Source of the DNA: an uncultured Alphaproteobacteria bacterium
GTDB taxonomy: Bacteria; Pseudomonadota; Alphaproteobacteria; Rs-D84
Length of the DNA: 64,000 nt
Assembly: GCA_934230415.1 (NCBI GenBank)
Contig: CAKQEW010000001.1
Coordinates: 12,258 to 76,257, forward strand
Reading direction: 5' to 3'
Shown: one piece after another, positions 1,157 to 58,695 of the stretch
How the letters are laid out: the number at the start of each line of letters is the position of its first letter
How positions within the stretch are numbered: position 1 is the stretch's first letter
The notes under the pieces: model-generated
What the model was told of the DNA's origin: nothing
Databases searched by the model: none
The model's input: the letters and a program-made list of their open reading frames with translations, nothing else
Translations under genes and position numbers: made by a program

Positions 1157-1216
<60 letters not shown>

Positions 1217-1233
<17 letters not shown>

Positions 1234-3642: not shown

Positions 3643-4641
3643 TTACGCCATTACATCTGATAATAATGTGTTCATATTTGCACGCAAATCTTCGCGATCA
3701 GACGCCCAAACCAATTGTCGCATCAGGAATTTGTTTACATCATCCATTGTGACATTTGGTGCGCCCGCCGATGCGGCCACCGCGCGCCACGCATGACGCG
3801 GATCGGTCAAATGACCGCGCCCACGCCCCGGGAAAACCCAGCGACCATTTTGTGGCAAATCCTGCAATAACACCACCGCCGCATCTGATAACGGCCGATC
3901 ACACCACGTATCATGATTAAAATCCAAATCAGCCCAGCGCATTGCAAACACCTGGGATTTTGGTGCAAATCCATAAATCAGCATAAAAAACGCCGCACGC
4001 AGATTCTGGTTTTTCATATGTTTGATTTCACGAACCAGACGATAAAACACTGATTTATTCATCGGACGCACGCGGCGGTTCTGGGGAACCTCTGGCAAAT
4101 CGTCAATTGGCCCAGACGAAACATAGCCAACATCACGCGCGTATGAAAACATACTCTGTAATAATTCCTGCATACGACCACGAATTGCCGGCCCAGATAT
4201 TTTTTCAATCACGTGCACACAGTCATCACGCGTAATATCTGAAATATTTTTTGCGAACAATTCCGACAAATGCATATTAATCGCCCGCATCAATTTGTCA
4301 CGCGACGCTGGCGTGCGACGAACCCGCGCCGTCATATACATGTCTATGAATTTACGAAATGTAATTTTACGCCGGCGAACCGCAATCGGTGCATCGGCAC
4401 GCGCCAGCGCATCAGATACCGCGCTGCGCGCATCTTCTATGTCCATATCTGGATAATTACCGATGATAATGCGACGGTCACGCCCACGCACGCGATGGCG
4501 CACAAAAAATGTTTTGACCCCACGACTGGTTATATACATGCGCAGACGTGGTTCTGACAAGTCTTGGACAACATCAAAACCCGCACCAGGGGCCGGCAGA
4601 TTATCCAAAATAAACGGATTAAAAAAGAATTGATGTGCCAT
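3643..4641 (-). CDS. P4-type tyrosine integrase homolog, apparently C-terminally truncated or degenerate
   Basis: N-terminus matches the P4-integrase arm-binding domain (DUF4102-like): ...PRLRMYITSRGVKTFFVRHRVRGRDRRIIIGNYPDMDIEDARSAVSDALA. The central region resembles the core-binding/catalytic fold (LIYGF..MRWADLDF). The protein ends about 35 aa after the region aligning to the pre-HxxR segment, and no catalytic Tyr is evident. Confidence 0.6.
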   Translation of the reverse strand: MAHQFFFNPFILDNLPAPGAGFDVVQDLSEPRLRMYITSRGVKTFFVRHRVRGRDRRIIIGNYPDMDIEDARSAVSDALARADAPIAVRRRKITFRKFIDMYMTARVRRTPASRDKLMRAINMHLSELFAKNISDITRDDCVHVIEKISGPAIRGRMQELLQSMFSYARDVGYVSSGPIDDLPEVPQNRRVRPMNKSVFYRLVREIKHMKNQNLRAAFFMLIYGFAPKSQVFAMRWADLDFNHDTWCDRPLSDAAVVLLQDLPQNGRWVFPGRGRGHLTDPRHAWRAVAASAGAPNVTMDDVNKFLMRQLVWASDREDLRANMNTLLSDVMA

Positions 4642-10444: not shown

Positions 10445-10640
10445 TCCCCCACAACACACCATGTCCCACCGTACCCCCGGTGTCAGGGGTCGGTCAAATA
10501 GCATAAAGAACGTAATAAGTTCCACCCGCAAAATCATGCGATTTTGCGGGTGGTGTCCCAGGGTTCCAGGTCATTAAAATCGTCCGCCAAAGGCGGACTC
10601 AAACATTGCTCTCTTTATTGCGGAGACGGGATGCCACCTC
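10445..10640. repeat. GC-rich intergenic repeat element, copy C (family with elements at 18538-18990 and 39400-39610)
   Basis: Ends in cattgctctct next to a gcgccaatggcgc terminator. Contains ccacccgcaaaat and gttcccc/cccc tracts shared with the other copies, and the perfect hairpin cacccgcaaaatcatgcgattttgcgggtg. Confidence 0.45.
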
Positions 10641-10644
10641 TAAT

Positions 10645-10674
10645 AAAAAAATGCGCCAATGGCGCATTTTTTTA
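10645..10674. terminator. Bidirectional terminator (aaaaaaatgcgccaatggcgcattttttt)
   Basis: Palindrome with A-run and T-run between convergent rbfA and the 237-aa surface protein gene. Confidence 0.65.
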
Positions 10675-11385
10675 TTCAATCCAAATACTGGCATATGTCG
10701 TTGCAGTGGCACTGCCCACAGGAACCTGGACGTTGGCCTTGGAAACCGTCACCGTGCCGGCATTGGCCGTCACACTGGTCACCATGTTACCAGAACCAGA
10801 AACCGTAACATTGCCACCCGTACCAGAATTTAATAAATTTTGTTTCTTGTCAATGTTGCCCTGTAATGTCGTATCAGCGGCCTTGTACGCAGTGTCCATA
10901 TCGTCTACTTTGCTTTCCAGGTCACTAATATCTGCCCCAACCAGGGATGCTGCCTGCTTGGCCATTTCATTCGCAACCGCCATTGATGGATACTTGTCCG
11001 TAGAATTTATATCTGCAGAAAAACCTGTCTTATCCGTTACCTTGTTCAGATTTGTTTCGGCAACCTTTTGCTGATACGTACCATCAGTATTCGTGCCAAC
11101 CGTATCATACAACATGGTCGTTCCAGAATACGTTGGCGTACCGGTTGTATACGTTGTATCCGTGGCAGAAATAACAACCTTACCCGCATTTGTACCGCTG
11201 GTCGGTGTGGTAACCGCAACGTTGGACCCCGCAACAATGTTCGTTTTGGACACGATATCCGCGAATGCGGGCGCCGCCACAAACAATGCAACAAACGAAC
11301 CGATAAAGATCTTCTTAATAAAATTCATATCTCTACATTCTGCTGTACACAATATTACCAGAAATTCCCCAAACGGGGCAAGCAC
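10672..11385 (-). CDS. secreted surface repeat protein, paralog 1 (237 aa)
   Basis: Signal peptide MNFIKKIFIGSFVALFVAAPAFA. Shares a ~70-aa identical block with the 521-aa paralog. C-terminus ...ATTYASIWIE. Confidence 0.6.
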   Translation of the reverse strand: MLAPFGEFLVILCTAECRDMNFIKKIFIGSFVALFVAAPAFADIVSKTNIVAGSNVAVTTPTSGTNAGKVVISATDTTYTTGTPTYSGTTMLYDTVGTNTDGTYQQKVAETNLNKVTDKTGFSADINSTDKYPSMAVANEMAKQAASLVGADISDLESKVDDMDTAYKAADTTLQGNIDKKQNLLNSGTGGNVTVSGSGNMVTSVTANAGTVTVSKANVQVPVGSATATTYASIWIE

Positions 11386-11435
11386 CTTTTACGGTATGGC
11401 GCAAATTTTTTACGCCATACCATATTCGTCATGCA

Positions 11436-13001
11436 TTAACGACCGATTTTTTCCCATGCGTATGTTTTTACGTTATCAACAACTTTCATCGTCAATGTAT
11501 ATGTACCGTCACTGGTGATATCGGCATTGGCTGTACCAGGGGCCGTAATTTTATCTGTAATATCGACTGCCTGCAATGCTGTATCTGCTTTGCCCAATGA
11601 TGTCTGAACATCAGGTGCCAACTTTGCCTTAGTAACATTCTTATCAGGAATCTTTACTGTTATCACTGCGTCATTTGCAATCATACCTGTCGCAATCTGA
11701 CCAGTGGTAACTCCGCCGCTAGCATTCGTGATAAGGGCTTTGTTCGCTGCGTCCGCACCCTGGGCCGTACTTACCTTGCCAGCGATACTAGTTTTATTGG
11801 TTGCAATATCGTTCTTGTTCGTTGTGATTTGCGTAACCAAGTCTTTCGTTACACCAGAGTTAACTGCAGCCATCTGGTTTGTGTCCAACGCCGCCTGCTT
11901 GTTATTCCATGTCGTCTTTTGTTCAGCTGTAACATGGATATCCCCATTTTTAATGTGGGTATCGTATGATGCTACCTTGGTACTGTTGATACCAGATTTG
12001 TATGCGTCACTGCCTTCAATAGTTGTGACACGATTTGTCAATGCGTTTACTGCATCTGATGTCGCAACAGTGGCTTCCTTGGTAATTGTGACATTGCCTT
12101 TGCCGTCAGCGGTAATCCCAGTAACAACATTACCAGTACCAGAAACCGTAACATTGCCACCCGTACCAGAATTTAATAAATTTTGTTTCTTGTCAATGTT
12201 GTCCTGTAATGTCGTATCAGCGGTTTGCAATGCTGTAATGGCACTTGCATTTGTTGATATCCCCGATTTATTGGTTGCAATATCGTTCTTGTTTGTTGTG
12301 ATTTGATCAACCAAGGCTTTCGTCGCACCAGAGTTAACTGCAGCCATCTGGTTTGTGTCCAACGCCGCCTGCTTGTTATTCCATGTCGTCTTTTGTTCAG
12401 CTGTAACATGGATATCCCCATTTTTAATGTGGGTATCGTATGATGCTACCTTGGTACTGTTGATACCAGATTTGTATGCGTCACTGCCTTCAATAGTTGT
12501 GACACGATTTGTCAATGCGTTTACTGCATCTGATGTCGCAACAGTGGCTTCCTTGGTAATTGTGACATTGCCTTTGCCGTCAGCGGTAATCCCAGTAACA
12601 ACATTACCAGTACCAGAAACCGTAACATTGCCACCCGTACCAGAATTTAATAAATTTTGTTTCTTGTCAATGTTGCCCTGTAATGTCGTATCAGCGGCCT
12701 TGTACGCAGTGTCCATATCGTCTACTTTGCTTTCCAGGTCACTAATATCTGCCCCAACCAGGGATGCTGCCTGCTTGGCCATTTCATTCGCAACCGCCAT
12801 TGACGGATATTTTTCTGTGGAAGTTGCATCTGCAGAAAAATTTGTCTTATCCGTTACCTTGTTCGCTTTCTGTTCGGCGGCGGCGGTAATCGCATCAGCT
12901 TTATCATTAACATATGATACAGATGCGATATCGGCGCGGGCGGCAGATGCCGTCATAACTGTGATTACAGAAATCGCCAGAATGCTTGTTAATCTTTTCA
13001 T
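11436..13001 (-). CDS. secreted surface repeat protein, paralog 2 (521 aa) with internal 158-aa tandem duplication
   Basis: Signal peptide MKRLTSILAISVITVMTASAARA. Ser/Thr/Asn/Gly-rich repeats (NSGTGGNVTVSGTGNVVTGITADGKGNVTITKEATVATSDAVNALTNRVTTIEG) present twice. C-terminus ...KTYAWEKIGR. Confidence 0.6.
   Translation of the reverse strand: MKRLTSILAISVITVMTASAARADIASVSYVNDKADAITAAAEQKANKVTDKTNFSADATSTEKYPSMAVANEMAKQAASLVGADISDLESKVDDMDTAYKAADTTLQGNIDKKQNLLNSGTGGNVTVSGTGNVVTGITADGKGNVTITKEATVATSDAVNALTNRVTTIEGSDAYKSGINSTKVASYDTHIKNGDIHVTAEQKTTWNNKQAALDTNQMAAVNSGATKALVDQITTNKNDIATNKSGISTNASAITALQTADTTLQDNIDKKQNLLNSGTGGNVTVSGTGNVVTGITADGKGNVTITKEATVATSDAVNALTNRVTTIEGSDAYKSGINSTKVASYDTHIKNGDIHVTAEQKTTWNNKQAALDTNQMAAVNSGVTKDLVTQITTNKNDIATNKTSIAGKVSTAQGADAANKALITNASGGVTTGQIATGMIANDAVITVKIPDKNVTKAKLAPDVQTSLGKADTALQAVDITDKITAPGTANADITSDGTYTLTMKVVDNVKTYAWEKIGR
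11790..12737. repeat. ~474-bp near-identical tandem duplication inside the 521-aa surface protein gene (copies ~11790-12263 and ~12264-12737)
   Basis: Antisense six-frame ORFs 11704-12306 and 12355-13026 share more than 110 identical residues at a 474-nt offset. Confidence 0.7.
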
Positions 13002-13089
13002 TTCCCAAAACCTTTCTATATTTTAACCCAGTATATAAAGCCTGACCTGTGGGGATGTGACGTGATGCGCCCCACCCCACAGTTTTTTA

Positions 13090-14160
13090 TTATTCTGCTG
13101 TACGTGAAATATCTTCCCACTGATAACCAATTGTTGAATCCCACGTCAGAACATATTTTGCATTAGAGCCAATTTTGTCAGCGGCCGGTGCTGGGATGGC
13201 TGCTTCGGCTGTTGTTTTGGCAACATTTGCTGTGCTCTGTGCAGCTGCGGCGGCCTCTGTATTGGCCTGGATTGTCGCAGCATAACCGTTATAGGTCGTT
13301 ACTTTGTCTGCTGTGATACCAGATTTCATAACCGCACTGTCATTGATTGTCGTGATGTCAGATGTGTTCTTTTCAACCGCTGTTTTCAAGGCTGTTTCAT
13401 CGTACTTGTCGGCCGCAATGGTGATTTTGCCATCTGCAATAGAAACCGTAACATTATCCCCACCAACCAAGTTTTCAGCTGTCAACTTGTTCTGTTTTTT
13501 ATCCAATTCAGTACCAACTTCTGTCTTGGTATATGCATCCGTGATGCCATAGCCCGCCAATGTTGTCGCCTTGTCAGCTTTCTTTCCAATTTCTGTTGTC
13601 AATTCTGTCTTTACAGCATCCGCAGCGCCCTTGGCTTCATATGTATTGCCCAAATTCAATTCGGTAATTGCATCAGCAATGGATTTCGCAACAGAACCGT
13701 CTTCTGTGGCAGTGCCGTTCAACTTTGTAATGGCGGCGGTGTTACTTCCAACTTTTGCTGTCAAATCAGTCAATCCTTCGGTCGTGGCGATACCCACTGT
13801 GCTGATTGTACCATCTTCTTTGATTTCAATGTTTGTACCAGCTGTCAGCTTGTTCTGTTTTTTACCCAATTCAGTATTCATGTCAGTGGTGGTTGTATAG
13901 TTTGCAAATTTACCATCAACCGTGCTGATTTTGCCTTCCAATTCTGTTTTGGTCGCAGATGCGGTCTCTTGTGTTTCAAACTTTGCATTGGCGGCTGCCT
14001 GTGTATAAACATCAGCGGTATTTGCCTTTAATGCAATCGCGTCTGCATTTGTCTTTGCCTTGGCATCAACATATGCGGTTGATGGGATGGCGGCGTTGGC
14101 AGAGTTTGCAGCAACAACACCCAGCATCACGGTTAAAATACCTGCGGTTAATTTTTTCAT
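13090..14160 (-). CDS. secreted surface repeat protein, paralog 3 (356 aa)
   Basis: Signal peptide MKKLTAGILTVMLGVVAANSANA. Repeats ...KKQNKLTAG...TDLTAKVGSNTAAITKL... C-terminus ...YQWEDISRTAE. Confidence 0.6.
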   Translation of the reverse strand: MKKLTAGILTVMLGVVAANSANAAIPSTAYVDAKAKTNADAIALKANTADVYTQAAANAKFETQETASATKTELEGKISTVDGKFANYTTTTDMNTELGKKQNKLTAGTNIEIKEDGTISTVGIATTEGLTDLTAKVGSNTAAITKLNGTATEDGSVAKSIADAITELNLGNTYEAKGAADAVKTELTTEIGKKADKATTLAGYGITDAYTKTEVGTELDKKQNKLTAENLVGGDNVTVSIADGKITIAADKYDETALKTAVEKNTSDITTINDSAVMKSGITADKVTTYNGYAATIQANTEAAAAAQSTANVAKTTAEAAIPAPAADKIGSNAKYVLTWDSTIGYQWEDISRTAE

Positions 14161-14208
14161 TTTTCTTTCCTTTCTTTCGTTTTTTTAATTGTTATTTTAT
14201 TTCTTGAA

Positions 14209-15216
14209 TTATTCACCCGTTGTGGTGCCATCGCTCTGGGTTACATCCAACCAAACCATTGCATCGCCCTGAACAGCCAATACACACTGCTTTACGCCGG
14301 TCTGGCAATCAACGCTTGGATATGGGATAACCTTGCTGAAACGCTGGTTCAATACATCTGAACCACCCTCTTCGGTCAATGCCTTGGTAATCGCGTCCGT
14401 AACATCTGTGGATGTCTGGGCACCGTTCACCTTGTTTGCCAATGCAGAATCCAGTTTGGCTTCGGTTACCGCACCATCTTGAATCTTGACCGATGTGATT
14501 GCGCCATCTTTGATTTTATCTGTGTTAATTTCAATACCTTCGGTAATCGCCTTGTTCAATTCTGTGTCAACGTATGACATTACCGCACCGGCGGTCGGGT
14601 ATGTACGCGCTTTGTCTGCTTCACTGGCGGTTGCGTTCAATTCCGCAATCTTGTTCGCAGCGTCTTCAGCGGTATATTCCAGTTTATCCTGTTTGCCACC
14701 AACCGCTGTTTTCAATGCAGTGATTTCACCCGCGTTTGTTGATGCGGCTGTTTTTGCTTCGTTTGCGGTCGTTTGCGCATTGCCGGCCTTGGTATCCGCA
14801 GCAGCAGCAGCAGCAGCAGCCTTATCTGCGATTGTCTTGGTCGCGGCCAAACCGGTCTGGGCGTCATTAACCGTTGTTGTCAGTGATGTTAAATCCGCCG
14901 CATTGGCCTTGGATTCTAATTCTGTTTTGGTTGCCAGGTTGTCCAATTCCGTCTTGTTCGCCTTCTTGTCCAATGCGGTTTTAATCACACCATCATCAGA
15001 TGTAATTGCGTTGGTAATCTGGTTGGTTACTTCGGTTTTGCTGGCATAATCAGCGTCGGTAATTTCTGTTTTCAACGCAGTCACCGTTTCCGCAACAGCA
15101 TTTGCTTTGTTATCAACGTACCCCTTGCTGGCAATCTGGGGTGCCGCCATCGCCGAACCAGTGGACAGCATAATCGCCGCCATAAATCCAGAGAATGCAA
15201 TGTTCTTTACTTTCAT
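14209..15216 (-). CDS. secreted surface repeat protein, paralog 4 (335 aa)
   Basis: Signal peptide MKVKNIAFSGFMAAIMLSTGSAMA. Ala/Thr-rich coiled-coil-like repeats, an AAAAAAAA tract. C-terminus ...MVWLDVTQSDGTTTGE. Confidence 0.6.
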   Translation of the reverse strand: MKVKNIAFSGFMAAIMLSTGSAMAAPQIASKGYVDNKANAVAETVTALKTEITDADYASKTEVTNQITNAITSDDGVIKTALDKKANKTELDNLATKTELESKANAADLTSLTTTVNDAQTGLAATKTIADKAAAAAAAADTKAGNAQTTANEAKTAASTNAGEITALKTAVGGKQDKLEYTAEDAANKIAELNATASEADKARTYPTAGAVMSYVDTELNKAITEGIEINTDKIKDGAITSVKIQDGAVTEAKLDSALANKVNGAQTSTDVTDAITKALTEEGGSDVLNQRFSKVIPYPSVDCQTGVKQCVLAVQGDAMVWLDVTQSDGTTTGE

Positions 15217-15281
15217 TTTCGTTCCTTTCTTTATTTTTGTCCTAATCTCCGTTATGGCGGGAATTTAGACACAAAACTGTT

Positions 15282-17153
15282 TTATTCACCTACTATCTCT
15301 ATCTGGGTCCACGCTTTGCTGGTGCCATCATATACGTACAGACCACCAGATGTTGGCGCCGCAACGCCCTGGTTTTCCAAGGCACGGTTCGCGGTTTCCT
15401 GGGCCGCGGCCGCCGCATCTGCCGCATCTGCCGCCGTCTGGGCCGCCGTATCTGCCGCCGTTTTGGCCGATTCCGCCAGTGTATGGTTTGTCGTTATATC
15501 CGTGGACAGCGCAACCAATTTGCCATCAATCACCGTTTGTGAATATGTTTCAGATTTCTGGTAATAGTTACCCAATGCACTGGCGTCAGCCTTGGTCGCC
15601 AGGGCATCCGTTGTCGCATAATCCGCCAGCGACGATTTTAATGCGTAATCATTTAATTCAGACTTGTCCGCCTTGGTCGTCAGGGCATCCGTTGTTGCAT
15701 AATCCGCCAGCGACGACTTTAATGCGTAATCATTTAATTCAGACTTGTCCGCCTTGGTCGTCAATGCATTCGCCAGGGCATCCGTTGTCGTCGTATCAGC
15801 CTTGGCATCCAATGCAGTCTTTAACGCATAATCGTCCAGCGATGTTTTATCAGCCTTGGTGTCCAATTGTGCATTAACGTATTCGGTCTTGGCATAGTTG
15901 GTCAATGCAGATTCCATATCACCCGCAACAACATTGGCGATTTTATCATCAACCTCTGTCTGGGAATATGTCTGTTCCTTGGTATAATAATCGCCCAGTG
16001 CACTGGCGTCAGCCTTGGCCGCCAATTTTGTATCAACGTCTGTAGTTGTGGCATAATTATTCAGTTCGGATTTATCCGCCTTGGTCGCCAGGGCGCCCGC
16101 CAACGCATCCGTTGTCGTTGTATCCGCCTTGGCCGCCAATTTCGTATCAACGTCCGCGGTCGTGGCATAATCCGCCAATTCAGACTTGTCCGCCTTGGTC
16201 GCCAATTTTGCATCAACGTCCACGGTTTTTTCATATTCACCCAGCGCCAAACTAATTGCGTTGTTAATCGCGTTGTTCATTGCGGTGATATCCGCCTTTA
16301 ACGCCAATCCACTTTCCACATCGGCGGTTTTTGCATATGGTGTCAGGTCAACATCCGCACCATCACCCTTGGGCCCTTGGGGACCAACCGGCCCCTGTTC
16401 ACCCTGGGGTCCCTCTGGCCCGACCGGTCCTTCGGGTCCGACCGGACCAATCGCACCAGTAATCGCAGATTTCGCAATCAATGGTGTCCAACCAGATTCA
16501 CCACGATAGCGCCAATTGATATATTCGTCGTCGGCATCAATTTCAATTTCACGCCCATCACGACCCGCAATCGTACCAATTGCATCCTTTAAATTTTCCA
16601 AATCAACAGAAATTTCGTTTGTTACATCATCAATCAGAACGAAACCGTCACTCTTGGGTGACAATGCATCTTGTTTATTCTGCAACTGGCCCGCCAAATC
16701 ATCACCACGATCGTTCAAGCCATCAACATCACGACGCAGCTGATCAACGTCCGCCTGGAGCGCCGCCGCCACCGATGGAACCAATGTTGAATTTCCACCA
16801 CCAGACGTGCCAGGATTTTGTGGCTTTATTGCTGTTGTACCACCCGTTGTGCCACCACCCAAATACTTACCAATTGATAAACGTGGCGTTGTGCCCGCAC
16901 GCACCGTTCCCGACGCGGTCGTGGTTGTTGCGCCCGTCGTCGTGCCGGTTGTTCGCGTTGCCGTCGGTGTCACACGTACAGAACCACCACGAACGGCCGT
17001 TGTCGTACCATTTCCACCCGTTGCAGATGCCGCAGATGAATACGTTCCGGCACCACCCAACGTACGCACAGTGGACGCGCCATATGCCCCAGAAACCGCG
17101 GCACACAGCACACACACAATCGCAACCGTTGAAATTTTAAGGTCTTTTTTCAT
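15282..17153 (-). CDS. secreted collagen-like repeat surface protein, paralog 5 (623 aa)
   Basis: Signal peptide. Gly-X-Y collagen-like tract GPVGPEGPVGPEGPQGEQGPVGPQGPKG. 27-aa tandem repeats (TKADKSELNDYALKSSLADYATTDAL). C-terminus ...KAWTQIEIVGE. Confidence 0.6.
   Translation of the reverse strand: MKKDLKISTVAIVCVLCAAVSGAYGASTVRTLGGAGTYSSAASATGGNGTTTAVRGGSVRVTPTATRTTGTTTGATTTTASGTVRAGTTPRLSIGKYLGGGTTGGTTAIKPQNPGTSGGGNSTLVPSVAAALQADVDQLRRDVDGLNDRGDDLAGQLQNKQDALSPKSDGFVLIDDVTNEISVDLENLKDAIGTIAGRDGREIEIDADDEYINWRYRGESGWTPLIAKSAITGAIGPVGPEGPVGPEGPQGEQGPVGPQGPKGDGADVDLTPYAKTADVESGLALKADITAMNNAINNAISLALGEYEKTVDVDAKLATKADKSELADYATTADVDTKLAAKADTTTTDALAGALATKADKSELNNYATTTDVDTKLAAKADASALGDYYTKEQTYSQTEVDDKIANVVAGDMESALTNYAKTEYVNAQLDTKADKTSLDDYALKTALDAKADTTTTDALANALTTKADKSELNDYALKSSLADYATTDALTTKADKSELNDYALKSSLADYATTDALATKADASALGNYYQKSETYSQTVIDGKLVALSTDITTNHTLAESAKTAADTAAQTAADAADAAAAAQETANRALENQGVAAPTSGGLYVYDGTSKAWTQIEIVGE
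15600..15762. repeat. 81-bp tandem repeat (2 identical copies) encoding the 27-aa TKADKSELNDYALKSSLADYATTDAL unit
   Basis: Identical DNA blocks visible at 15601-15681 and 15682-15762. Further degenerate copies lie upstream. Confidence 0.6.
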
Positions 17154-17216: not shown

Positions 17217-17951
17217 TTAAAATTCATATCTGATACCAACGGATATAGAATTATCCAGAATCAGGCCGATTTTATTTTCAAACGATGCCGTGAATGTACC
17301 CGCGTGCCCCGGTTCTGTGGAAACATATTCAAACCGACGCGTGTGCGTTGTGCCATTCAAACCCGCCAAACGATAGCGAACATCCAACACCAAATTGTCG
17401 TCCAATTCCTGGGTAAATCCAACCATCAGACCCGCCATCGGCGATACAGATGTCTTGGTTCCATCACCAGATACAAAATTTTCCCAATCCAGTTTTGTCG
17501 TCGGCGCCGCCAAGCCCAGGCCACCACCAACATACAGACCATTGGTGAAATCATAATACGCATTCGCCATCAAATACGGCACAGACAACTTAAAATCAAA
17601 TCCATTATCGCTGTCTGAAAATTGCGTGATATAGCCGGCTTCAACCTCGCCCCGCCAGAAGTAACCAAAGTGGCGACCGGCAGACAAACTGGCCCCGAAT
17701 ACCGGTTCAAATGAATAACTGTCCGAACTGAAATCCGCATCTGTCCCAGGATAATCCGACGAATACTTGTTTTTCCAATTCAGGAAATTCATTTCGGCAC
17801 GACCGGCGATGTACCAGCCTGTTTTTTCTTTGTCTGTGTAATTATATGTGACGTTATATCCACCGTTTTTGTCCGGCTGAACATAGCTGGGTGCCGCAGA
17901 TGCCGCGGATGTCAGCCCCACCAGAACAAATAATGACACTAATTTTTTCAT
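17217..17951 (-). CDS. outer-membrane beta-barrel protein (OmpA-like/OmpW/Opa-like porin family)
   Basis: Signal peptide MKKLVSLFVLVGLTSAASA. Alternating amphipathic beta-strand pattern, aromatic girdle residues. C-terminal ...GIRYEF ending in Phe. Confidence 0.65.
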   Translation of the reverse strand: MKKLVSLFVLVGLTSAASAAPSYVQPDKNGGYNVTYNYTDKEKTGWYIAGRAEMNFLNWKNKYSSDYPGTDADFSSDSYSFEPVFGASLSAGRHFGYFWRGEVEAGYITQFSDSDNGFDFKLSVPYLMANAYYDFTNGLYVGGGLGLAAPTTKLDWENFVSGDGTKTSVSPMAGLMVGFTQELDDNLVLDVRYRLAGLNGTTHTRRFEYVSTEPGHAGTFTASFENKIGLILDNSISVGIRYEF

Positions 17952-39657: not shown

Positions 39658-41055
39658 TTACTGGATTCCAACACTGAACTCGTCACCCCAACCGGCAACG
39701 GTCTGGCCACCAACCGTGCATTGGATATCCTCAAATCCTTTCTTTATCTGGTTCTTTTTTACAACGTGACTGGTTACCAGACCACCTGTTGTCCCCAATA
39801 CAACCGCCGCAATGGAATCTGATGCCAGACGTGCGGTATTAAATTTACCTTCCTCGTCACGCCATACCGTTACTTTTAACTGGTCTTGCATCCCGCGCAG
39901 TTCACTGACCAATTGCGATACGCGACCGGACGTTGTTGTCTGATTTTCACGCAGGATGGTCGCGGCCTTTTTGACGCATTTGCCACCGTCAAATTCATAG
40001 TCCCGGTCGTTGCATATGCATTCGCCACTTATCCATCGTGCATCAGATGCGGCCTCGCACGGGGCTTTGTTTGCCTTTATGACACATCTGTCATGCGTCC
40101 ATTCCATGTCCACGTCCCGACAACGGCACTGATTATCAACCCAGTATGCGACATCGCCGCCAACCGCCACACAGCGTTCATACGCCAGCGTGGTTTCGGT
40201 CTTGACACAATTGCCGGTGGCGTCGCGTTCACTGCCGTTGGTGCAATCGCATGTACCATCGGTCCCCAATGTCAGGTTTTTATTTGCATCGCATACGCAT
40301 GCATTGTTTTTCCATTCGCCACCCGATTGTGTACATATTTTGCTTTTTTCTTGTTCAGTGGCGGCTCTCTCCTGTTCTGCCTGAATAGTGGCAGCCGTTT
40401 TTTTGCATTGTTTTATGCTGGGATCCCATTCATAGTCAGCGCTGATGCATTCACATGTCTTTCCGTCACCGGATGTCCGCATAAAGGCGCCATTACATTC
40501 GCACGCACCATTGCCCCAGGTGCCACCCGTGTTGGAACATGCGCGACGGGCCGCAGATTCAGTTTCAGAAACACATTTCCCACCAATATTTTGGTAACCA
40601 GATTTGCATGCATACCCCAAACAAACCGTTCGGCCTGGAACCATCGTGTATGACGAACCATTTGTCCTAACATAGTCTACAAAATCTGGATTGTATACTG
40701 CTTGCAGTGCATTTGGGTCATTCGCCAGCTCCATTTGTCCACCATCTGTACATTGTTTGATTCTGGATGGTTTCCACTCGTTGTCATACATAAATTTTCC
40801 GCGATGACATTCATATAGATAGTTGGAATAATATCCTCCACCGTTGCGAATTTGTGCGGGACCAATAACCGCAACAGTGTCAAGATTATGACAATATTCC
40901 CCCGCACACAGGTAACAGCCAACATCTGGCACGGCCAATACCTTGTCATTACTTTGATTACACTGACTATCGTTTACTGCTATGCATCCGAATTTGTTTG
41001 CATTGGCATTGCCAACAGATAAAAACACCATCAGTATAAATAATAATTTTTTCAT
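39658..41055 (-). CDS. secreted cysteine-rich modular protein with conserved ~95-aa C-terminal module (paralog A)
   Basis: Signal peptide MKKLLFILMVFLSVGNANA. Repeated Cys modules (GGxWxNxACxCxxN...). C-terminal 95 aa nearly identical to the gene at 41235-42407. Confidence 0.6.
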   Translation of the reverse strand: MKKLLFILMVFLSVGNANANKFGCIAVNDSQCNQSNDKVLAVPDVGCYLCAGEYCHNLDTVAVIGPAQIRNGGGYYSNYLYECHRGKFMYDNEWKPSRIKQCTDGGQMELANDPNALQAVYNPDFVDYVRTNGSSYTMVPGRTVCLGYACKSGYQNIGGKCVSETESAARRACSNTGGTWGNGACECNGAFMRTSGDGKTCECISADYEWDPSIKQCKKTAATIQAEQERAATEQEKSKICTQSGGEWKNNACVCDANKNLTLGTDGTCDCTNGSERDATGNCVKTETTLAYERCVAVGGDVAYWVDNQCRCRDVDMEWTHDRCVIKANKAPCEAASDARWISGECICNDRDYEFDGGKCVKKAATILRENQTTTSGRVSQLVSELRGMQDQLKVTVWRDEEGKFNTARLASDSIAAVVLGTTGGLVTSHVVKKNQIKKGFEDIQCTVGGQTVAGWGDEFSVGIQ

Positions 41056-41234: not shown

Positions 41235-42407
41235 ATGAATAAATTATGGCTGTTTTTGTTTATCGCACTGATGCCGGTGGCGGGATTTTGTGTGGACAGC
41301 GATGTTACACGTGCTAGCATGCAAAGAATTAGCAAGCACGAACATATGCCATACAGTAAATTTCATGTGCTGTTCCCAGACCAGATACAATATCAAGCTT
41401 TCATGGATGACTCGCCCGAATTTTATTCTGCATATGAATGTGGCTGGGGCGACATAAAGGTGGGCAACACAGTCAAATTAGGTGCAGGCCATGTATTCGA
41501 TGGGCGAGTAATTGATCACGATGTTCGCTATCTGTGTACCAGTAGCGGTTGGGTTTCGGATAACAGTAAAACGACTAAAAACAAAACAGAAGCGAATGGC
41601 GGTGCGGCCGCGTGCAGTCTGCAGATACGTAGTTTTACCGACACATCTGACTATGACATGGATGAATATTTATACCAGGATTCTGGTACGTGGGAATTCT
41701 ATGCATCGTCACGTGTGCGGCCGGTTGGTTCTGCGGTCCAGGTATATGAATGCAATGGGCGCAGCAATGCCCCCAGTGCGGCATGTGGTGTTGGCGCAAA
41801 AATTATACTGAATTCGGGTGCTGGGATTGGAAATCAGACGGTCGCCGAAAAGGGTGAATTTGTATTTGAATGCACAAACAACAGTAAGATAAAGAGTGAC
41901 AGCTATAAATGGCAATATACCAAGATTGTGCCCCGGTGTCCGTATGTTTCTGGAAATACCCCCACGTCAGAGGCAATCAATGGGCGCACACTGTATTTTA
42001 TGTCTGATTACAATGTGTATTGTGGGGATGTGTACCAGGTCGCCACCCAGGCCGAGGCCGATAACCAAATGGAATATGTTAAAACGGCAACGGCGACGAT
42101 AAACACCAGTGTCAGCACTGGTCCCAATACGGCGTCTGGTCGCGTAACACAATTGGTCAGTGAACTGCGTGGGATGCAGGACCAGTTAAAAGTGACGGTA
42201 TGGCGTGACGAGGAAGGTAAATTTAATACCGCACGTCTGGCATCAGATTCCATTGCGGCGGTTGTATTGGGGACAACAGGTGGTCTGGTAACCAGTCACG
42301 TTGTAAAAAAGAACCAGATAAAGAAAGGTTTTGAAGATATCCAATGCACGGTTGGTGGTCAAACAGTTGCCGGTTGGGGTGACGAGTTCCGTGTTGGAAT
42401 CCAGTAA
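41235..42407 (+). CDS. secreted cysteine-rich protein with conserved ~95-aa C-terminal module (paralog B)
   Basis: Signal peptide MNKLWLFLFIALMPVAGFC. Unrelated Cys-rich N-terminal region. C-terminus SGRVTQLVSELRGMQDQLKVTVWRDEEGKFNTARLASDSIAAVVLGTTGGLVTSHVVKKNQIKKGFEDIQCTVGGQTVAGWGDEFRVGIQ. Confidence 0.6.
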   Translation: MNKLWLFLFIALMPVAGFCVDSDVTRASMQRISKHEHMPYSKFHVLFPDQIQYQAFMDDSPEFYSAYECGWGDIKVGNTVKLGAGHVFDGRVIDHDVRYLCTSSGWVSDNSKTTKNKTEANGGAAACSLQIRSFTDTSDYDMDEYLYQDSGTWEFYASSRVRPVGSAVQVYECNGRSNAPSAACGVGAKIILNSGAGIGNQTVAEKGEFVFECTNNSKIKSDSYKWQYTKIVPRCPYVSGNTPTSEAINGRTLYFMSDYNVYCGDVYQVATQAEADNQMEYVKTATATINTSVSTGPNTASGRVTQLVSELRGMQDQLKVTVWRDEEGKFNTARLASDSIAAVVLGTTGGLVTSHVVKKNQIKKGFEDIQCTVGGQTVAGWGDEFRVGIQ

Positions 42408-45129: not shown

Positions 45130-45930
45130 TCAATATGTGCACATGCTGGTTTCTATCTGGAATGTACCCTGCGCATCGTAATACGTTCCCGCCGGCAGAT
45201 AGCAGCTGCTCTGGGCGGTGGCGCCGGCACTGGATGTTCCGGTTGCCAATGTTGTCTTGGCCACATCGGTATAAACGCCCGTGGCACTGGGGCATTTTGT
45301 ACACGATGACGCCCCGGTTGTCGCGGAATATGTCCCCGCACTGCACGTCGTGCATGATATGGCAACGCCCGCCGACGCCGTTCCCGCACGACACTTTGTG
45401 CACCCCAGCCCAGATGCACTGTCACTGTTGATGGCCTGGACATTGCGCGATGCTGGATAATATCCAGCGGCGCACGCATATATATCCTGGTATTCATCAG
45501 ACGTGCTGTATCCACCAACCCCCGCCCTGGCGCAACTGAAAAAATATCCACGTGGCGGATTTACCGCCCCGCTTGAACTGGATGATGACCAGGACAATAA
45601 CTGTGACCGGACAGAATTACAATCCGATTGTGTGCTAAAACATATAATCCAACGACTGCTGGGGATGTTTTCTGAATCCTGATTTGTGGCCAGGTACAAT
45701 CCACCATCTGGGATACAATATACATATGAGCCTGTACCAATTTCTGTTGATTTAACACACCACCGTGCCACAGTGTCACAAAAGCTGCTGCTACTGGAAC
45801 TCTCGTACGTGCCACACGTCTGGCTGCAATACACACGGCTGGCCGCAGACGCCGCACCAAACATCATCACCCCCGTCACGATTATTGCAAAGAAAACCTT
45901 TCTCATTATGACGCCCCCACATTTATTCAT
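45130..45930 (-). CDS. secreted Cys/Ser/Thr-rich protein with furin-like CxxC...G.Y repeats
   Basis: Signal peptide. Repeated C-x2-C-x-x-GT(Y/A)S modules (CTKCRAGTAS, CTTCSAGTYS, CTKCPSATGVY). Confidence 0.5.
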   Translation of the reverse strand: MNKCGGVIMRKVFFAIIVTGVMMFGAASAASRVYCSQTCGTYESSSSSSFCDTVARWCVKSTEIGTGSYVYCIPDGGLYLATNQDSENIPSSRWIICFSTQSDCNSVRSQLLSWSSSSSSGAVNPPRGYFFSCARAGVGGYSTSDEYQDIYACAAGYYPASRNVQAINSDSASGLGCTKCRAGTASAGVAISCTTCSAGTYSATTGASSCTKCPSATGVYTDVAKTTLATGTSSAGATAQSSCYLPAGTYYDAQGTFQIETSMCTY

Positions 45931-53900: not shown

Positions 53901-54926
53901 TCACATACGAATATATCCACCGTCTACTTTTTGCACCAAACCCTGTAATTCCAGCACTACCAAATCTCGCTTTATTTCCGAAATACTTTTTTGGACAATT
54001 TCTGCCAATACAGATTCGGACACTGGAATCGCCCCCAATTTATCCAACAAGGAATTTTCACCCGTTTCTTTTTTTGATTTTTTTTGCAACGATTGGGAAT
54101 TATTTTCCAGTTCTGGGAAATCATTCACCCCGGTGCACAATTCTGCGATGCCTGATTTTATTAATGAATTTGGACCTGCCCCCCGGGAATCTGCGGGATG
54201 CGATGGGATTGCATATATTTTACGACCAATTTCATTTGCGAATCGGGCGGTGCGCATACTGCCAGAATTCATATCCGCTTCGCCCAGAATTAATTTCTCG
54301 CTGATTCCTGCAACCCAGCGATTACGCTGCACAAAATTTGTTGCAACCGGCACAAAACCGACCGGCATTTCACTGATAATCACGCCACGCGCAACAATTT
54401 CCCAATACAACGATTCGTTTTCCAGTGGCCATATATAATCCACCCCACCCGCCAGAACCGCAATTGTCTGGGTATTGCCATCGGCGCGCAGTGCCCCGCG
54501 ATGCGCCGCCGTATCCGTGCCAATCGCCATTCCTGACACGACCGCGCGCCCCGCCATTGCAAACTTTGTCGCCAAATCTGCGATAAAATTCATACCTGTG
54601 GCGGTTGCGTGGCGCGTTCCCACCATTCCGATTGCCGGGCGACGTAATGTTTCCAGATTTCCACGTGCCGTAATGACGGGTGGCCGATTACGCACATCGC
54701 GCAACATCGCCGGATACAATTCATCGTCATCACATATATAATGTATATTTAATTCATCCGCACGCGCCATTTCACGCCGAACACTATCAACATGTGATTG
54801 TGACGCATTCAACATTGCGGCGGCCGCCGCAACATCACCATCGGTGCGTCGTAACAATTCACGATACCGTACGGGACCGATGCCCGGGTTGCGCAATATT
54901 AATAACTTATTAAATAATTCGTTCAT
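53901..54926 (-). CDS. dprA: DNA processing protein DprA/Smf
   Basis: Rossmann-like DprA core (GMAIGTDTAAHRGAL, VVSGMA...). C-terminal wH-like region. Confidence 0.8.
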   Translation of the reverse strand: MNELFNKLLILRNPGIGPVRYRELLRRTDGDVAAAAAMLNASQSHVDSVRREMARADELNIHYICDDDELYPAMLRDVRNRPPVITARGNLETLRRPAIGMVGTRHATATGMNFIADLATKFAMAGRAVVSGMAIGTDTAAHRGALRADGNTQTIAVLAGGVDYIWPLENESLYWEIVARGVIISEMPVGFVPVATNFVQRNRWVAGISEKLILGEADMNSGSMRTARFANEIGRKIYAIPSHPADSRGAGPNSLIKSGIAELCTGVNDFPELENNSQSLQKKSKKETGENSLLDKLGAIPVSESVLAEIVQKSISEIKRDLVVLELQGLVQKVDGGYIRM

Positions 54927-57069: not shown

Positions 57070-58695
57070 TTAATTCAGTGGTGCGCCCCAATGCTGTTGG
57101 ATACTGCGTTCTGCATCCATTGGGCTGACCAATACCTGGGGCGTCAGGATAACAACCAATGTATCACGCGTTGCCGATGTTTCACGCGATCCCGACAGCG
57201 CCATAAAGTCTGGATCACCCAAGCCATAGCGCGTATCATTATTGGTCTGTTTTTCAAACCCAGATACAACCAACATCTGGCCAGATTCCATAATAACTTC
57301 CTGCATGAAACTGCGTTCTTCAACCTCTGGCAACTGTAATGTAACCTCGCCAATTGTCTGGGTTGACATTTTCAGCAATTCACGCACAGACATACGGAAC
57401 AGCAACAAAATCTTGCCATTTTCCAAAACATTCGGCAACAGCTGCATAGAGAAACCTGTTTCCAAATCGTCCTGGTCAACCGTGCTGGATTCAACCGTTG
57501 TGAAATTACGTGATTCAAAACGTTTGATATATCCAGTGGTCTTGGTGTTATTAACAGGTGCAACACGGTTGCTGCGTGTGGTCACCCCAACGTTTGTAAC
57601 CAATGATACCTTGCCCTGCTTTGCCAACGCCTCTATCAATGCGGCACTGCCTGCGGCGCGGGCCAACGAACCATTCTTTATCTGGTCTGGGGTATATGCA
57701 CCGGCAACCGTTGACGAACCTTCTGTATGTGTGGCACCGGTCAATGCCGACACAGAATTTGACAGAACTGCGATGTTCATAGAACTGGCCTCGGTCGTGG
57801 CCAAATTATTCTTTGGATTCGCAACAATGTTCAAACCCGACGCACTGTTAATCGCCGCTGCCAGATTCAATCCAAACGCCGAATCATTTGATATAGATAC
57901 CTGCAAAACCTTGACATCAATTGTCACCAACTGGGACAGACGTTTGTTCTGGCGCGTAATATAATCACCAACACGTGCCAAAACCGATGGTGGCGCCGTC
58001 ACAGTAATTGTGCCCAAGCTGCGTGATACAGTGAAATCAGAATTATCTGATTTGCCGATAATCCCTGAAATCGCCTTTTCAATTTCATCCCATTCTTTTA
58101 ATGTGGATTCCAATGCGACCTGGTTTCCATCATCTGTCTGAACCGCGGTCTGGTATGAAACATCGGTTCCCAACGCATATAATGTAAATGTACGTGTTTC
58201 TGTTTCGTAAAACACAATGGATGTTTTGTCATAGTACCACAACAAATCCAAATCCGTTGCGACCTGGGACAACAGGCCAGACAATTTACCAGTATACGCG
58301 ACATTAATCGTCTTTTTCAATTTCTCAGAATTAACCTGGCTGTCAATCTTGACCGGGATGCCGGTAATAGAATGAATATCGTTTGCCAATACCTGTAACG
58401 TAACCGGTTCATTTAATAAAATTGTAACCCCAGTATCCGTTTCAAATTCAGATGGCAAGTTATTACGATGTTCCAACACGGTTGACTTGTTCCCCAACCA
58501 AACCCCTTCTGACATAGAAACGGTATCGCCACTGGCAACCTTGGCGCGTGGATTTTTCGCCATTTCAAACGCATCATATGCATTAATAAAATCCTGGTCC
58601 ACCGACGCGGCCACCTTGGCAGATTCGCGCACCGTACATCCCGCCAGTGCAACCGTCGCCGCGGCCAACATTAACATTCTTATTGTCTTTGTCAT
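57070..58695 (-). CDS. lipoprotein secretin of type IVb-pilus type (PilN/TcpC/BfpB-like)
   Basis: Lipobox LAGC. C-terminal secretin domain (VTIDVKVLQVS..., ...GQMLVVSGFEKQT...RDTLVVILTPQVL). Confidence 0.7.
   Translation of the reverse strand: MTKTIRMLMLAAATVALAGCTVRESAKVAASVDQDFINAYDAFEMAKNPRAKVASGDTVSMSEGVWLGNKSTVLEHRNNLPSEFETDTGVTILLNEPVTLQVLANDIHSITGIPVKIDSQVNSEKLKKTINVAYTGKLSGLLSQVATDLDLLWYYDKTSIVFYETETRTFTLYALGTDVSYQTAVQTDDGNQVALESTLKEWDEIEKAISGIIGKSDNSDFTVSRSLGTITVTAPPSVLARVGDYITRQNKRLSQLVTIDVKVLQVSISNDSAFGLNLAAAINSASGLNIVANPKNNLATTEASSMNIAVLSNSVSALTGATHTEGSSTVAGAYTPDQIKNGSLARAAGSAALIEALAKQGKVSLVTNVGVTTRSNRVAPVNNTKTTGYIKRFESRNFTTVESSTVDQDDLETGFSMQLLPNVLENGKILLLFRMSVRELLKMSTQTIGEVTLQLPEVEERSFMQEVIMESGQMLVVSGFEKQTNNDTRYGLGDPDFMALSGSRETSATRDTLVVILTPQVLVSPMDAERSIQQHWGAPLN

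Follow-up and report, generated by a model that had tools for sequence, protein, structure and literature searches.

A variable island of exported, phage-fibre-like proteins with a candidate trimerisation module in the gut alphaproteobacterium Candidatus Enterousia

Introduction

What is the role of five consecutive genes for repetitive, exported proteins on the chromosome of a gut bacterium that is predicted to live off other cells? This question is raised by an island of genes, here called P1 to P5, at positions 10672-17153 of a 64,000-nucleotide (nt) stretch of contig CAKQEW010000001.1 (hereafter the window, to which all coordinates refer unless stated otherwise). The source of the window is Candidatus Enterousia of the order Rs-D84, an uncultured, genome-reduced gut alphaproteobacterium. 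Members of this lineage have been described as rod-shaped, non-flagellated bacteria with genomes of 0.75-1.0 Mb, which ferment and lack respiration and most standard transporters; the prediction is that they live as obligate symbionts or parasites, take their metabolites from other cells and need physical contact with their partner cells (PMC12306168). The window also codes for TolB, Pal, an AsmA-family protein and an outer-membrane protein (OMP), and the envelope is therefore that of a diderm.

Based on the present analyses, we consider the chance somewhat better than even (a probability of roughly 0.55) that the island codes for Sec-exported, homotrimeric fibres of coiled-coil and collagen segments, which are built from modules known from phage fibres, are closed by a foldon-like clamp and serve either for attachment or as a variable coat. 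The five proteins probably form surface fibres of the cell. No description of them was found in the literature on Enterousia, Rs-D84, foldon-like or fibre-like adhesins.

Results

Five exported proteins of distinct classes

The initial annotation had described five consecutive minus-strand genes for signal-peptide proteins, and the corresponding open reading frames (ORFs) are indeed present at 10672-17153. They are listed here with their lengths in amino acids (aa) and the class to which each protein belongs.

10672..11328, minus strand: P1, 218 aa, last-position class, ending in ..VQVPVGSATATTYASIWIE, no W-x-x-[IV] hairpin
11436..13001, minus strand: P2, 521 aa, fourth-position class, N-terminal motif DIASVSYV, Trp hairpin ending in ..YAWEKIGR
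13090..14160, minus strand: P3, 356 aa, MKKLTAGI class, N-terminal motif AIPSTAYVD, helical stalk with short hairpin inserts, Trp hairpin
14209..15216, minus strand: P4, 335 aa, second-position class (MKVKNIAFSGF...), N-terminal motif IASKGYVD, helical stalk, Trp hairpin with a Cys pair
15282..17153, minus strand: P5, 623 aa, first-position class, signal peptide, conserved N-terminal region, collagen, repeat stalk, Trp hairpin

The length of 237 aa first given for P1 needs correction to, most likely, 218 aa. The mechanical ORF extends to a GTG at 11385, but the signal peptide becomes canonical with the ATG at 11328, from which the gene is also called in a conspecific contig, and we therefore place P1 at 10672-11328. 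As proposed earlier, all five proteins carry typical Sec/signal peptidase I signal peptides, in which a basic n-region leads into a hydrophobic core and cleavage is at a site of the A-x-A type. The predicted sites in P1 to P5 are ..AFA/DIVSK, ..ARA/DIASV, ..ANA/AIPST, ..AMA/APQIAS and ..AYG/ASTVR (the slash marks cleavage). Lipoproteins were rejected: no lipobox is present, Cys 14 and Cys 17 of P5 lie inside the h-region, and the cleavage sites are of the A-x-A type. Linkage to peptidoglycan through an alanyl-aspartyl N-terminus, which reportedly occurs in OMPs of Brucella, was dismissed because the predicted mature N-termini are not consistently Ala-Asp. A type IV pilin-like reading of the signal (MKKLTAG/I...) likewise failed, as there is no Glu at +5 and the Gly is missing in the other classes.

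The reported Thr- and Ala-rich composition is borne out (Thr plus Ala 28-34% in the five proteins), and the proteins are almost devoid of Cys, Trp, His and Arg. The term paralogous applies only in a loose sense. P1 and P2, which are 84% identical over 109 aa (E=2e-57), are the one clearly related pair; the scores of 15-35 bits of the remaining pairs compare with a maximum of 26.9 bits for shuffled sequences. Judged by sequence, the five proteins are mosaics that reuse short modules and represent five distinct classes rather than simple paralogues. Whole-length alignment of such mosaics is uninformative, and alignments of the tails were used in its place. Relatives are numerous (1181 for P3, 1173 for P5 and 125 for P1), all of them unnamed, and a cluster look-up returned no names. 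Scans of the five proteins with Pfam, NCBIfam and PHROGs gave no family above cut-off, the PHROG matches stemming from collagen or repeats, and no fitting Pfam, NCBIfam or PDB family was found for the island proteins.

A C-terminal Trp module

All five proteins had been said to end in a common Trp motif. This holds for P2 to P5, which carry W-x-x-[IV], but the conserved motif at the end of P1 is another one, ..IW[IV]E. The acidic residue that was thought to follow the motif is not a consistent feature, as P2 ends in ..WEKIGR. The motif lies within the last 20 residues of 4/5 island proteins, as opposed to 1/55 other long ORFs of the window, that one being antisense. Trp is otherwise scarce: P1 and P4 have one each, and the two Trp residues of P3 are both in the tail. 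A scan of one genome per species recovered 74 related loci, nearly all from Candidatus Enterousia, 'uncultured Rickettsiales' or Alphaproteobacteria metagenome-assembled genomes (MAGs) of human and animal guts, one of them being a chromosome record of 958,618 bp from a circular MAG assembly. We took 218 fibre-like ORFs from these loci and aligned their 210 distinct tails. The motif survives this proper alignment, in which Trp is the sole invariant column and the consensus reads [IV]P.P..(C)....G.(C/Y)VL[TS]...(D/N)G...(Y).W..[VI], followed by a short, variable and mostly acidic tail (~26% Asp/Glu, 7% Lys/Arg). The consensus of the P3-class tails is IP.P..C......KC.L......Y.WE.[IV]ER. In the P1-type class, 42 ORFs from the related loci and the window end in ..[IV]P.GS..AT.YA.IW[IV]E-COOH. 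The modules of P2 to P5 comprise 22-36 aa.

11439..11546, minus strand: C-terminal module of P2, TAPGTANADITSDGTYTLTMKVVDNVKTYAWEKIGR
13093..13200, minus strand: C-terminal module of P3, AIPAPAADKIGSNAKYVLTWDSTIGYQWEDISRTAE, with Lys and Tyr in place of the usual Cys pair
14212..14319, minus strand: C-terminal module of P4, PSVDCQTGVKQCVLAVQGDAMVWLDVTQSDGTTTGE, in which both Cys (304, 311) and the single Trp (322) of P4 are found
15285..15374, minus strand: C-terminal module of P5, NQGVAAPTSGGLYVYDGTSKAWTQIEIVGE, a predicted beta-hairpin

In AlphaFold2 monomer models of P3 and P5, the Trp motif forms the second strand of a predicted beta-hairpin that directly follows the last long helix. The P3 model ends with a helix (293-321), the linker IPAPAADKIGSNA and two strands (336-341 and 345-350), the last 70 residues having predicted local distance difference test (pLDDT) values of ~66-84. 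In P5 the long helix 539-594 precedes the strands 605-609 and 614-618. The distribution of Cys follows the same region. All mature-chain Cys residues of the P3 class (92/92) and the P4 class (70/70) lie within the last 45 residues, and they are present as a pair in 46/63 P3-class and 35/40 P4-class proteins, mostly on either side of the loop that precedes strand 1. Most relatives of the P3 and P4 classes have no Cys residues other than the two of the hairpin region. Such pairs fit a disulfide that is formed outside the cytoplasm, and hence export.

Two roles had been suggested for the motif, a sorting or anchoring tag and a trimerisation or tip domain. The position of the hairpin behind the last helix and the Cys pair favour trimerisation, and the features of sorting signals are absent. 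We nevertheless weighed the possibility that the module is a sorting or secretion tag that is read by a dedicated outer-membrane machine, comparable to the C-terminal domain (CTD) of the type IX secretion system (T9SS) or to sortase signals, and that it is not a clamp. Its place at the very C-terminal end of four classes that otherwise diverge freely in sequence, the short and variable acidic tail behind it, and a secretin with a TcpQ-like partner coded ~40 kb away would all suit such a tag. However, Pfam and NCBIfam gave no match of the five proteins to LPXTG, PEP-CTERM, GlyGly-CTERM or the T9SS CTD, a beta-sandwich of ~80 aa, and the tails are hydrophilic and acidic, with neither the hydrophobic helix nor the basic tail of known C-terminal sorting signals. 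The dedicated sortase gene that might co-occur with a tag was looked for as well, and within +/-10 kb the 74 loci have no conserved gene for a sortase, exosortase or transporter. Moreover, a disulfide-stapled hairpin looks structural, and the last-position class has no module and yet the same kind of signal peptide. Known C-terminal sorting signals were rejected on these grounds, and we regard a tag of any kind as improbable.

Stalks with helices, collagen and phage-like modules

The P3 model (based on an alignment of 22 sequences, mean pLDDT 61) consists almost entirely of long helices with two short hairpin inserts, the first long helix starting at residue 28, ~4 residues past the cleavage site. 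The P5 model (mean pLDDT 43) has a low-confidence N-terminal region, a helix at 126-164, a beta module at 172-232 and further helices before the long helix and the hairpin at its end. Residues 24-125 of P5 are of low complexity and predicted to be disordered (pLDDT<50), and the beta module reaches pLDDT values of ~53-74 (~70 for 200-232). The sequences are enriched in a hydrophobic periodicity of 3.5-3.75 residues (z=2-4) and show no beta periodicity. Below cut-off, Pfam returned weak matches to Alanine_zipper (OprI/Lpp-type).

Together with the fact that the island adjoins pal, tolB and an OMP gene, these zipper matches could be taken to mean that the proteins stay in the periplasm and link the outer membrane to peptidoglycan as Lpp-like tethers or rulers. 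This is very improbable. The proteins have no lipobox, and with lengths of 218 to >1400 aa, mostly as a helical rod, they are far longer than the established width of the periplasm. Collagen, modules of phage receptor-binding proteins and the replacement of cassettes between strains would also be unexpected in periplasmic structural proteins. The Braun lipoprotein/OprI type of alanine zipper itself (a lipobox with Cys at +1 and a short trimeric helix of ~60-80 aa) does not describe the island proteins, which have 218-623 aa in the window.

P5 differs from the other proteins in its N-terminal region and its collagen, and contains the following features.

16458..17078, minus strand: conserved N-terminal region of P5, aa 26-232, with Arg/Gly/Thr-rich islands, the helix 126-164 and the small beta module 172-232
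16359..16457, minus strand: collagen-like tract of 11 uninterrupted Gly-X-Y triplets, P5 aa 233-265
15585..15763, minus strand: tandem repeat with an 81-nt (27-aa) unit, 2.2 copies, 95% identity, and degenerate copies up to ~16270

Both the collagen run and the 27-aa repeats had been noticed before and are confirmed here. The match of P5 to Pfam Collagen (PF01391; E=2.5e-4) scores 21.2 bits and thus lies below the cut-off of 27.2 bits, but P5 orthologues have from ~4 to >60 triplets and many of them carry PF01391. In PDB sequence searches with P5, P2 and P3 we obtained only collagen peptides and BclA, which are weak matches of P5, and a motif-level match to gp15 of phage PSA. Collagen cannot fold other than in a triple helix, which a further domain has to nucleate. 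Because a Sec substrate moreover arrives unfolded, a small, disulfide-stabilised clamp at the C-terminus would be a natural starter of trimerisation.

The N-terminal region of P5 (~200-230 aa) is conserved across its class and is followed by collagen of very variable length and a variable stalk. Invariant columns of the family alignment define the motif islands SVR.LGG.GTY, VRGGSVRV and PRLSIGKYLGGG, and the small beta module reads DGFV.IDD.TNEI...DGREVEIG....L.WRY.G..W..LI. We infer that this region is a candidate for a cell-proximal anchor. An exhaustive search with the N-terminal region of P5 found 861 representative proteins (clusters at 50% identity) at E<=0.001; it returned the same clade and unrelated giant proteins that reuse one 40-aa module, which gave no functional lead. 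This module of ~40 aa, DGREIEI....INWRYRGESGWTPLI....ITG (window 16452-16583, P5 aa ~190-234), precedes the collagen tract, has no Pfam model and recurs 5-15 times in tandem in giant proteins (700-2700 aa) of other organisms, together with Flg_new/RCC1 or collagen domains.

The comparison with adhesins or phage-fibre-like filaments made by the initial annotation fits the modules of several island proteins. P2 contains a tandem duplication of 474 nt (11793-12697, 98% identical) and two copies of a motif (nt 12369-12440 and 11895-11966) in which YDTHIKNGDIHVTAEQKTTWNNK matches LDEHVNDADIHVTATDKTNWNAK of the shoulder motif of Listeria phage PSA gp15 (6r5w), a match at the level of the motif. The P3 motif TLAGYGITDAYTK (nt 13516-13563) is 57-77% identical to phage-type proteins that carry Mtd_N or tail-collar domains, and P5 matches tail-fibre PHROGs and, weakly, phage collagen proteins of BFVD. 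The reuse of modules extends to the island itself, where a block of 284 nt is common to P1 (10778-11061) and P2 (12595-12878) at 93% identity.

A fixed chromosomal locus and an ordered set of classes

A tblastn search with the flanking genes of the window showed the same order, ftsX-ftsE-pal-OMP-[fibre genes]-dedA-rbfA-lepA, in ~60 loci. The gap between the OMP gene and dedA measures 2.4-15.1 kb and holds 2-9 fibre genes, most commonly 4. The flanks of the 74 loci contain ftsEX, pal, tolB, dedA, rbfA and lepA, and no phage gene is conserved nearby. These data bear on the idea that the island is a remnant of the tail-fibre module of a prophage or tailocin, without a function for the cell. The sequence modules that the proteins have in common with phage tail fibres and receptor-binding proteins would agree with this idea. 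However, neither the island nor its flanks contain other phage genes, the site and the gene order are the same in ~60 genomes of an order, and every protein has a Sec signal peptide, which virion fibres do not have. A scan of the 2.9 million viral contigs of IMG/VR found no relative of the island family, and 50,697 phage genomes gave nothing significant when searched by tblastn with P2, P3 and two tail peptides. The fixed housekeeping locus in ~60 genomes and the absence from IMG/VR indicate that the genes are cellular and not phage genes, so that a virion tail fibre was rejected and a phage remnant is largely refuted. An integrase-like ORF is located elsewhere in the window (3643-4641, minus strand; Arm-DNA-bind_3 domain, E=1e-7), ~2.4 kb from the only tRNA gene of the window (tRNA-Pro, 1157-1233, plus strand), and the two may mark the edge of an integrated element. 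It should be noted here that two of the loci are probably mis-binned. One is assigned to a bin named Bacteroides fragilis (L005) and yet has fibre genes in the gene order of Enterousia, where ftsX, ftsE, pal and OMP share 75-91% identity with those of the window; the other (L036, from a bin named Clostridia bacterium) is a contig of 1.5 kb with a P3-class gene and nothing else.

The five classes can be recognised by their signal peptides and ends, and the order OMP-P5-P4-P3-P2-P1-dedA recurs across the order Rs-D84. The motif [IL][AT]S..YV(D) at the mature N-terminus is present in 28/29 proteins of the P2 class, 62/63 of the P3 class, 39/40 of the P4 class and 0/22 of the P5 class. In 38 complete islands, the first gene lacks this N-motif and has the Trp hairpin in 34/38 cases, the middle genes have both (82/104), and the last gene has no hairpin in 31/38 cases and ends in ..IW[IV]E in 20/38. 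The N-motif of the last gene was found in 19/38 cases by regular expression, and in more if a degenerate variant is counted. Thus, in gene order, k genes come with k-1 hairpins and k-1 N-motifs. The loci share ancestry, and this regularity weighs about as much as a single observation (about 1 in 20). One reading would be that the five classes are segments of one composite filament, joined head to tail. P5 would be its initiator, anchored by its own N-terminal domain and coded beside the OMP gene, P4, P3 and P2 would be extenders and P1 the terminator or tip, and each segment would receive the N-terminal helix bundle of its successor in its own trimeric hairpin cup. Such a filament would resemble the long tail fibre of T4 (gp34-37) in its segmented build and differ from it in being cellular and Sec-dependent. 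The N-motif is nearly identical in all classes, which leaves no obvious pairing code, and we consider the composite filament quite doubtful.

The following features adjoin the fibre genes.

17217..17951, minus strand: outer-membrane beta-barrel-type protein, 244 aa, ending in ..GIRYEF, directly upstream of P5
17175..17204, minus strand: promoter-like site TTGACG-18-TAAAAT, TG-extended, upstream of P5, a consensus match whose number of sites equals that in shuffled sequence
10582..10598, minus strand: terminator-like hairpin downstream of P1, a consensus match only

The OMP gene is co-oriented with the fibre genes in 62 related loci, and its product has a weak NCBIfam match to Rickettsia Adr (E=0.006). 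Judged from its sequence and position, this protein may be a functional partner of the fibres or merely a syntenic neighbour. The intergenic region between P2 and P1 (11385-11435) contains a perfect 9-bp inverted repeat, GGTATGGCG...CGCCATACC, just past the stop codon of P2 and without a clear T-run, which could be an attenuator or an RNA-stability element in a putative operon.

Exchange of stalk cassettes between strains

The island is among the fastest-changing loci seen in this analysis. At a related locus (L001) with flanking proteins 76-90% identical to those of the window, the P3 orthologue (P0026) is only 40% identical. In a contig of the same species (L077), the DNA of the flanks is 98.7-99.2% identical and the ends of the island genes align at 87-98%, but the P3 stalk (13681-13972), the P2 body (11553-12856) and the middle of P1 (10793-11037) have no alignable counterpart. 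The P3 segment is thus a cassette that has been replaced in the conspecific strain. P5 has 623 aa in the window and 587 aa in that strain, and the alignment breaks inside the repeat region. In the P3 family, the invariant columns cluster in the first 31 and the last 30 residues, and since the middles cannot be aligned, the conserved ends bracket exchangeable cassettes. In another locus (L035, 11290-11904), the last fibre gene starts with the signal peptide and N-terminus of the P2 type (MKRLTSILAISVIAVMSAGAARADIASTTYV), to which a C-terminus of the P1 type (..IPVGSATAPTSVASIWVE) is fused. On sequence grounds this gene looks like a P2/P1 recombinant, which would agree with recombination through the block that P1 and P2 have in common. 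The length of the proteins, the collagen, the phage receptor-binding modules and the turnover of cassettes between strains all argue for surface exposure over a periplasmic role.

This variability raises the question of what the fibres would do. They might not attach the cell to anything but form a protective, antigenically variable coat, an S-layer-like brush against phages, bacteriocins and immunoglobulin A. It is the stalk that varies, and the tips are tiny and conserved, neither end having a binding domain of the lectin type or any other; near-identical strains differ by replaced stalk cassettes and by changed repeat numbers, and the collagen ranges from ~4 to >60 triplets. On the other hand, the conservation of five classes and of their order throughout an order-level clade points to separate roles and not to a bulk coat, physical contact with partner cells is predicted to be a need of the organism (PMC12306168), and the hairpin inserts of the stalk could hold binding sites. 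The conserved tiny ends and variable stalks thus fit a coat slightly better, and attachment or an organised apparatus agrees with the lifestyle and with the conservation of five classes. We regard a purely protective coat as unlikely.

Other envelope and secretion genes in the window

A secretin-like gene (57070-58695, minus strand) codes for a protein that resembles the PilN-family secretins of type IVb pili (TIGR02520, E=8e-71, below cut-off; Pfam Secretin, 1e-13). It adjoins a gene with a TcpQ domain (58743-59642, minus strand), and dprA is nearby (53901-54926, minus strand). In a published survey of reduced-genome gut lineages, type IV pili were ascribed only to UBA9783 and not to Rs-D84. 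To judge by these sequences, the secretin could serve in DNA uptake, which might feed recombination in the island, or in the export of folded proteins. A divergent gene pair (39658-41055, minus strand, and 41235-42407, plus strand) codes for Cys-rich proteins of 465 and 390 aa with signal peptides and no family match, which have a near-identical C-terminus of ~95 aa (..QLVSELRGMQDQLKVTVWRDEEGKFNTARLASDSIAAVVLGTTGGLVTSHVVKKNQIKKGFEDIQCTVGGQTVAGWGDEF.VGIQ) with a hydrophobic stretch and may represent a second envelope or surface family with a common C-terminal module. The gene at 45130-45930 (minus strand) encodes a secreted, Cys/Ser-rich protein of 266 aa with a weak match to Ephrin_rec_like (E=3e-4) and to no other family.

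Discussion

The order of helix, Pro-rich linker and hairpin, the presence of collagen and the unfolded state of Sec substrates led us to interpret the Trp module as a clamp and to regard the proteins as homotrimeric fibres. Each chain would have a cleavable signal peptide, a class-specific N-terminal end, a long variable stalk and a C-terminal module of ~30 aa. In P2 to P4, [IL][AT]S..YVD would start the first helix right after the cleavage site, and in P5 a region of ~200 aa would take its place. Amphipathic helices (as coiled coil or alanine zipper), short beta-hairpin inserts and phage-tail-fibre modules would make up the stalk, to which P5 would add a collagen triple-helix segment. The C-terminal module would consist of the Pro-rich linker and a beta-hairpin with the invariant Trp on its second strand, usually stapled by a disulfide. 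According to the proposed mechanism, the chains would be exported by Sec and reach the periplasm unfolded, the C-terminal hairpins would associate three-fold and set the register, and the stalk would then zip up from the C-terminal end, as the foldon does it for T4 fibritin. The fibres would finally be displayed on the cell, either to attach it to the surface of a partner cell or host or to form an antigenically variable coat, and recombination between the conserved ends of the genes would swap their stalks as cassettes. What the data show is the genes with their signal peptides, motifs and synteny, the replacement of cassettes, where Cys and Trp are placed, and a predicted secondary structure. 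From these we infer that the chains trimerise, that the hairpin acts as a clamp and that the fibres pass the outer membrane and are displayed on the surface, and likewise what they do.

Several points weigh against the interpretation as trimeric surface fibres. The trimeric state is deduced from sequences and monomer models, and the latter have a low overall confidence (mean pLDDT 61 and 43, predicted TM score 0.24). Foldseek searches of the P3 and P5 models against PDB and BFVD gave no match at E<=0.001. Neither end of P2 to P4 contains a recognisable anchor domain, and no route across the outer membrane was identified. Both protein ends are conserved and the middle is variable, which is the reverse of what would be expected for an adhesin that acts through its tip. 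Nor was homology found between the tails and the T4 foldon. A profile of 62 tails found no foldon-containing chain in PDB at E<=10, its sole match being a B-lectin hairpin (E=0.03), and an hhalign comparison of the tails with the C-terminus of fibritin was null (probability 0.25%). In Smith-Waterman comparisons with the foldon, the best members score 45 as opposed to a maximum of 38 among 2100 shuffled tails, and 15% of the tails lie above the 95th percentile of the shuffles, so that the excess is slight. Homology to the foldon was rejected on the profile and hhalign searches, and only the functional analogy was kept. An alignment of the C-termini to a known phage tail-fibre or adhesin tip domain was also sought, with a negative outcome.

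As an analogy, T4 fibritin (gpwac) remains instructive. It is likewise a segmented coiled coil with loop inserts, a Pro-containing linker and a C-terminal hairpin of ~27-30 aa with a Trp on strand 2, the proposed job of the hairpin being the registration of the trimer, which in the foldon takes a three-fold, beta-propeller-like form, and the local pattern of the foldon is resembled by AAPTSGGLYVYDGTSKAWTQIEI in P5 and AIPAPAADKIGSNAKYVLTWDSTIGYQWEDI in P3. The order of elements and the hairpin hence suggest a foldon-like registration clamp. In contrast to fibritin, with which there is no statistically supported sequence relationship, the island module usually has a disulfide and a longer loop, and the island proteins are exported and cellular and not parts of a virion. 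The same difference sets them apart from phage tail fibres and receptor-binding proteins (PSA gp15, PDB 6r5w; T4 gp34-37). They share with these the modules DIHVTAEQKTTWNNK, TLAGYGITDAYTK and I..DAVIT.KI.D.NVT.AKLA and the clustering of several consecutive fibre genes, but they have signal peptides and are coded on a housekeeping chromosome with no chaperone or tail gene nearby.

Collagen-like surface proteins such as Bacillus BclA, Streptococcus Scl1/2 and Legionella Lcl resemble P5 in having a strain-variable Gly-X-Y tract with non-collagenous flanking domains, which would nucleate the trimer. Unlike these proteins, the island proteins have no C1q/TNF-like C-terminal domain, LPXTG or exosporium-targeting motif, and collagen is a minor segment of one protein in five. 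Trimeric autotransporters of the YadA family are also Sec-dependent and have coiled-coil stalks and repetitive, recombining passengers on a diderm surface. The earlier judgement that the island proteins cannot be assigned to them is upheld, since no YadA_anchor or other trimeric autotransporter family was matched at E<=1 in Pfam or NCBIfam by any of the five. The type Vc adhesins were therefore rejected: the C-terminal anchor, a 12-stranded barrel with four strands per chain, is absent, as are the YadA head, neck and stalk families, and the C-termini are hairpin modules.

In functional terms, the nearest analogue is the MAT (mosaic adhesive trimer) family of Bdellovibrio bacteriovorus, for which 21 genes have been reported as a genome-wide family. 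MAT fibres have a beta-rich domain, conserved and ~130 aa long, right after the signal peptide and end in large and diverse tip domains, such as S74 protease/chaperone, TNF-like, C-type lectin and beta-sandwich domains (PMC10769870). Both families consist of chromosomal, multi-gene and mosaic sets with Sec signal peptides and phage-tail-fibre-like rods, the trimeric state being deduced for the island, and both belong to bacteria that live at the expense of other cells. The differences lie in the ends and the gene arrangement. The helix of P2 to P4 starts ~4 residues past the cleavage site and the N-terminal region of P5 is of low complexity and predicted to be disordered; the C-terminus is a conserved hairpin of ~30 aa and it is the stalk that varies, and the genes form one ordered island. 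Membership in the MAT family was rejected because the P3 and P5 models lack the beta-rich domain of ~130 aa behind the signal peptide, a distinction that rests on the description of MAT and not on a sequence alignment.

We conclude that the island represents a new, previously undescribed family of phage-fibre-like exported fibres, coded in an ordered island found throughout an order and with a candidate for a new module of trimerisation. In protein engineering the foldon is in wide use as a tag that makes trimers, and the disulfide-stapled Trp hairpin of ~30 aa could be a second, independent answer to the problem of fibre registration. In view of its variability, the island could also serve as a marker for strain typing. 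Its fixed site, its fast change and the fact that its genes code for the only obvious long exported filaments in the window make the island the prime candidate for the attachment or surface apparatus of this lineage. Together with the MAT fibres of Bdellovibrio, the family would show that partner-dependent bacteria have repeatedly recruited phage-fibre modules for cell-cell recognition.

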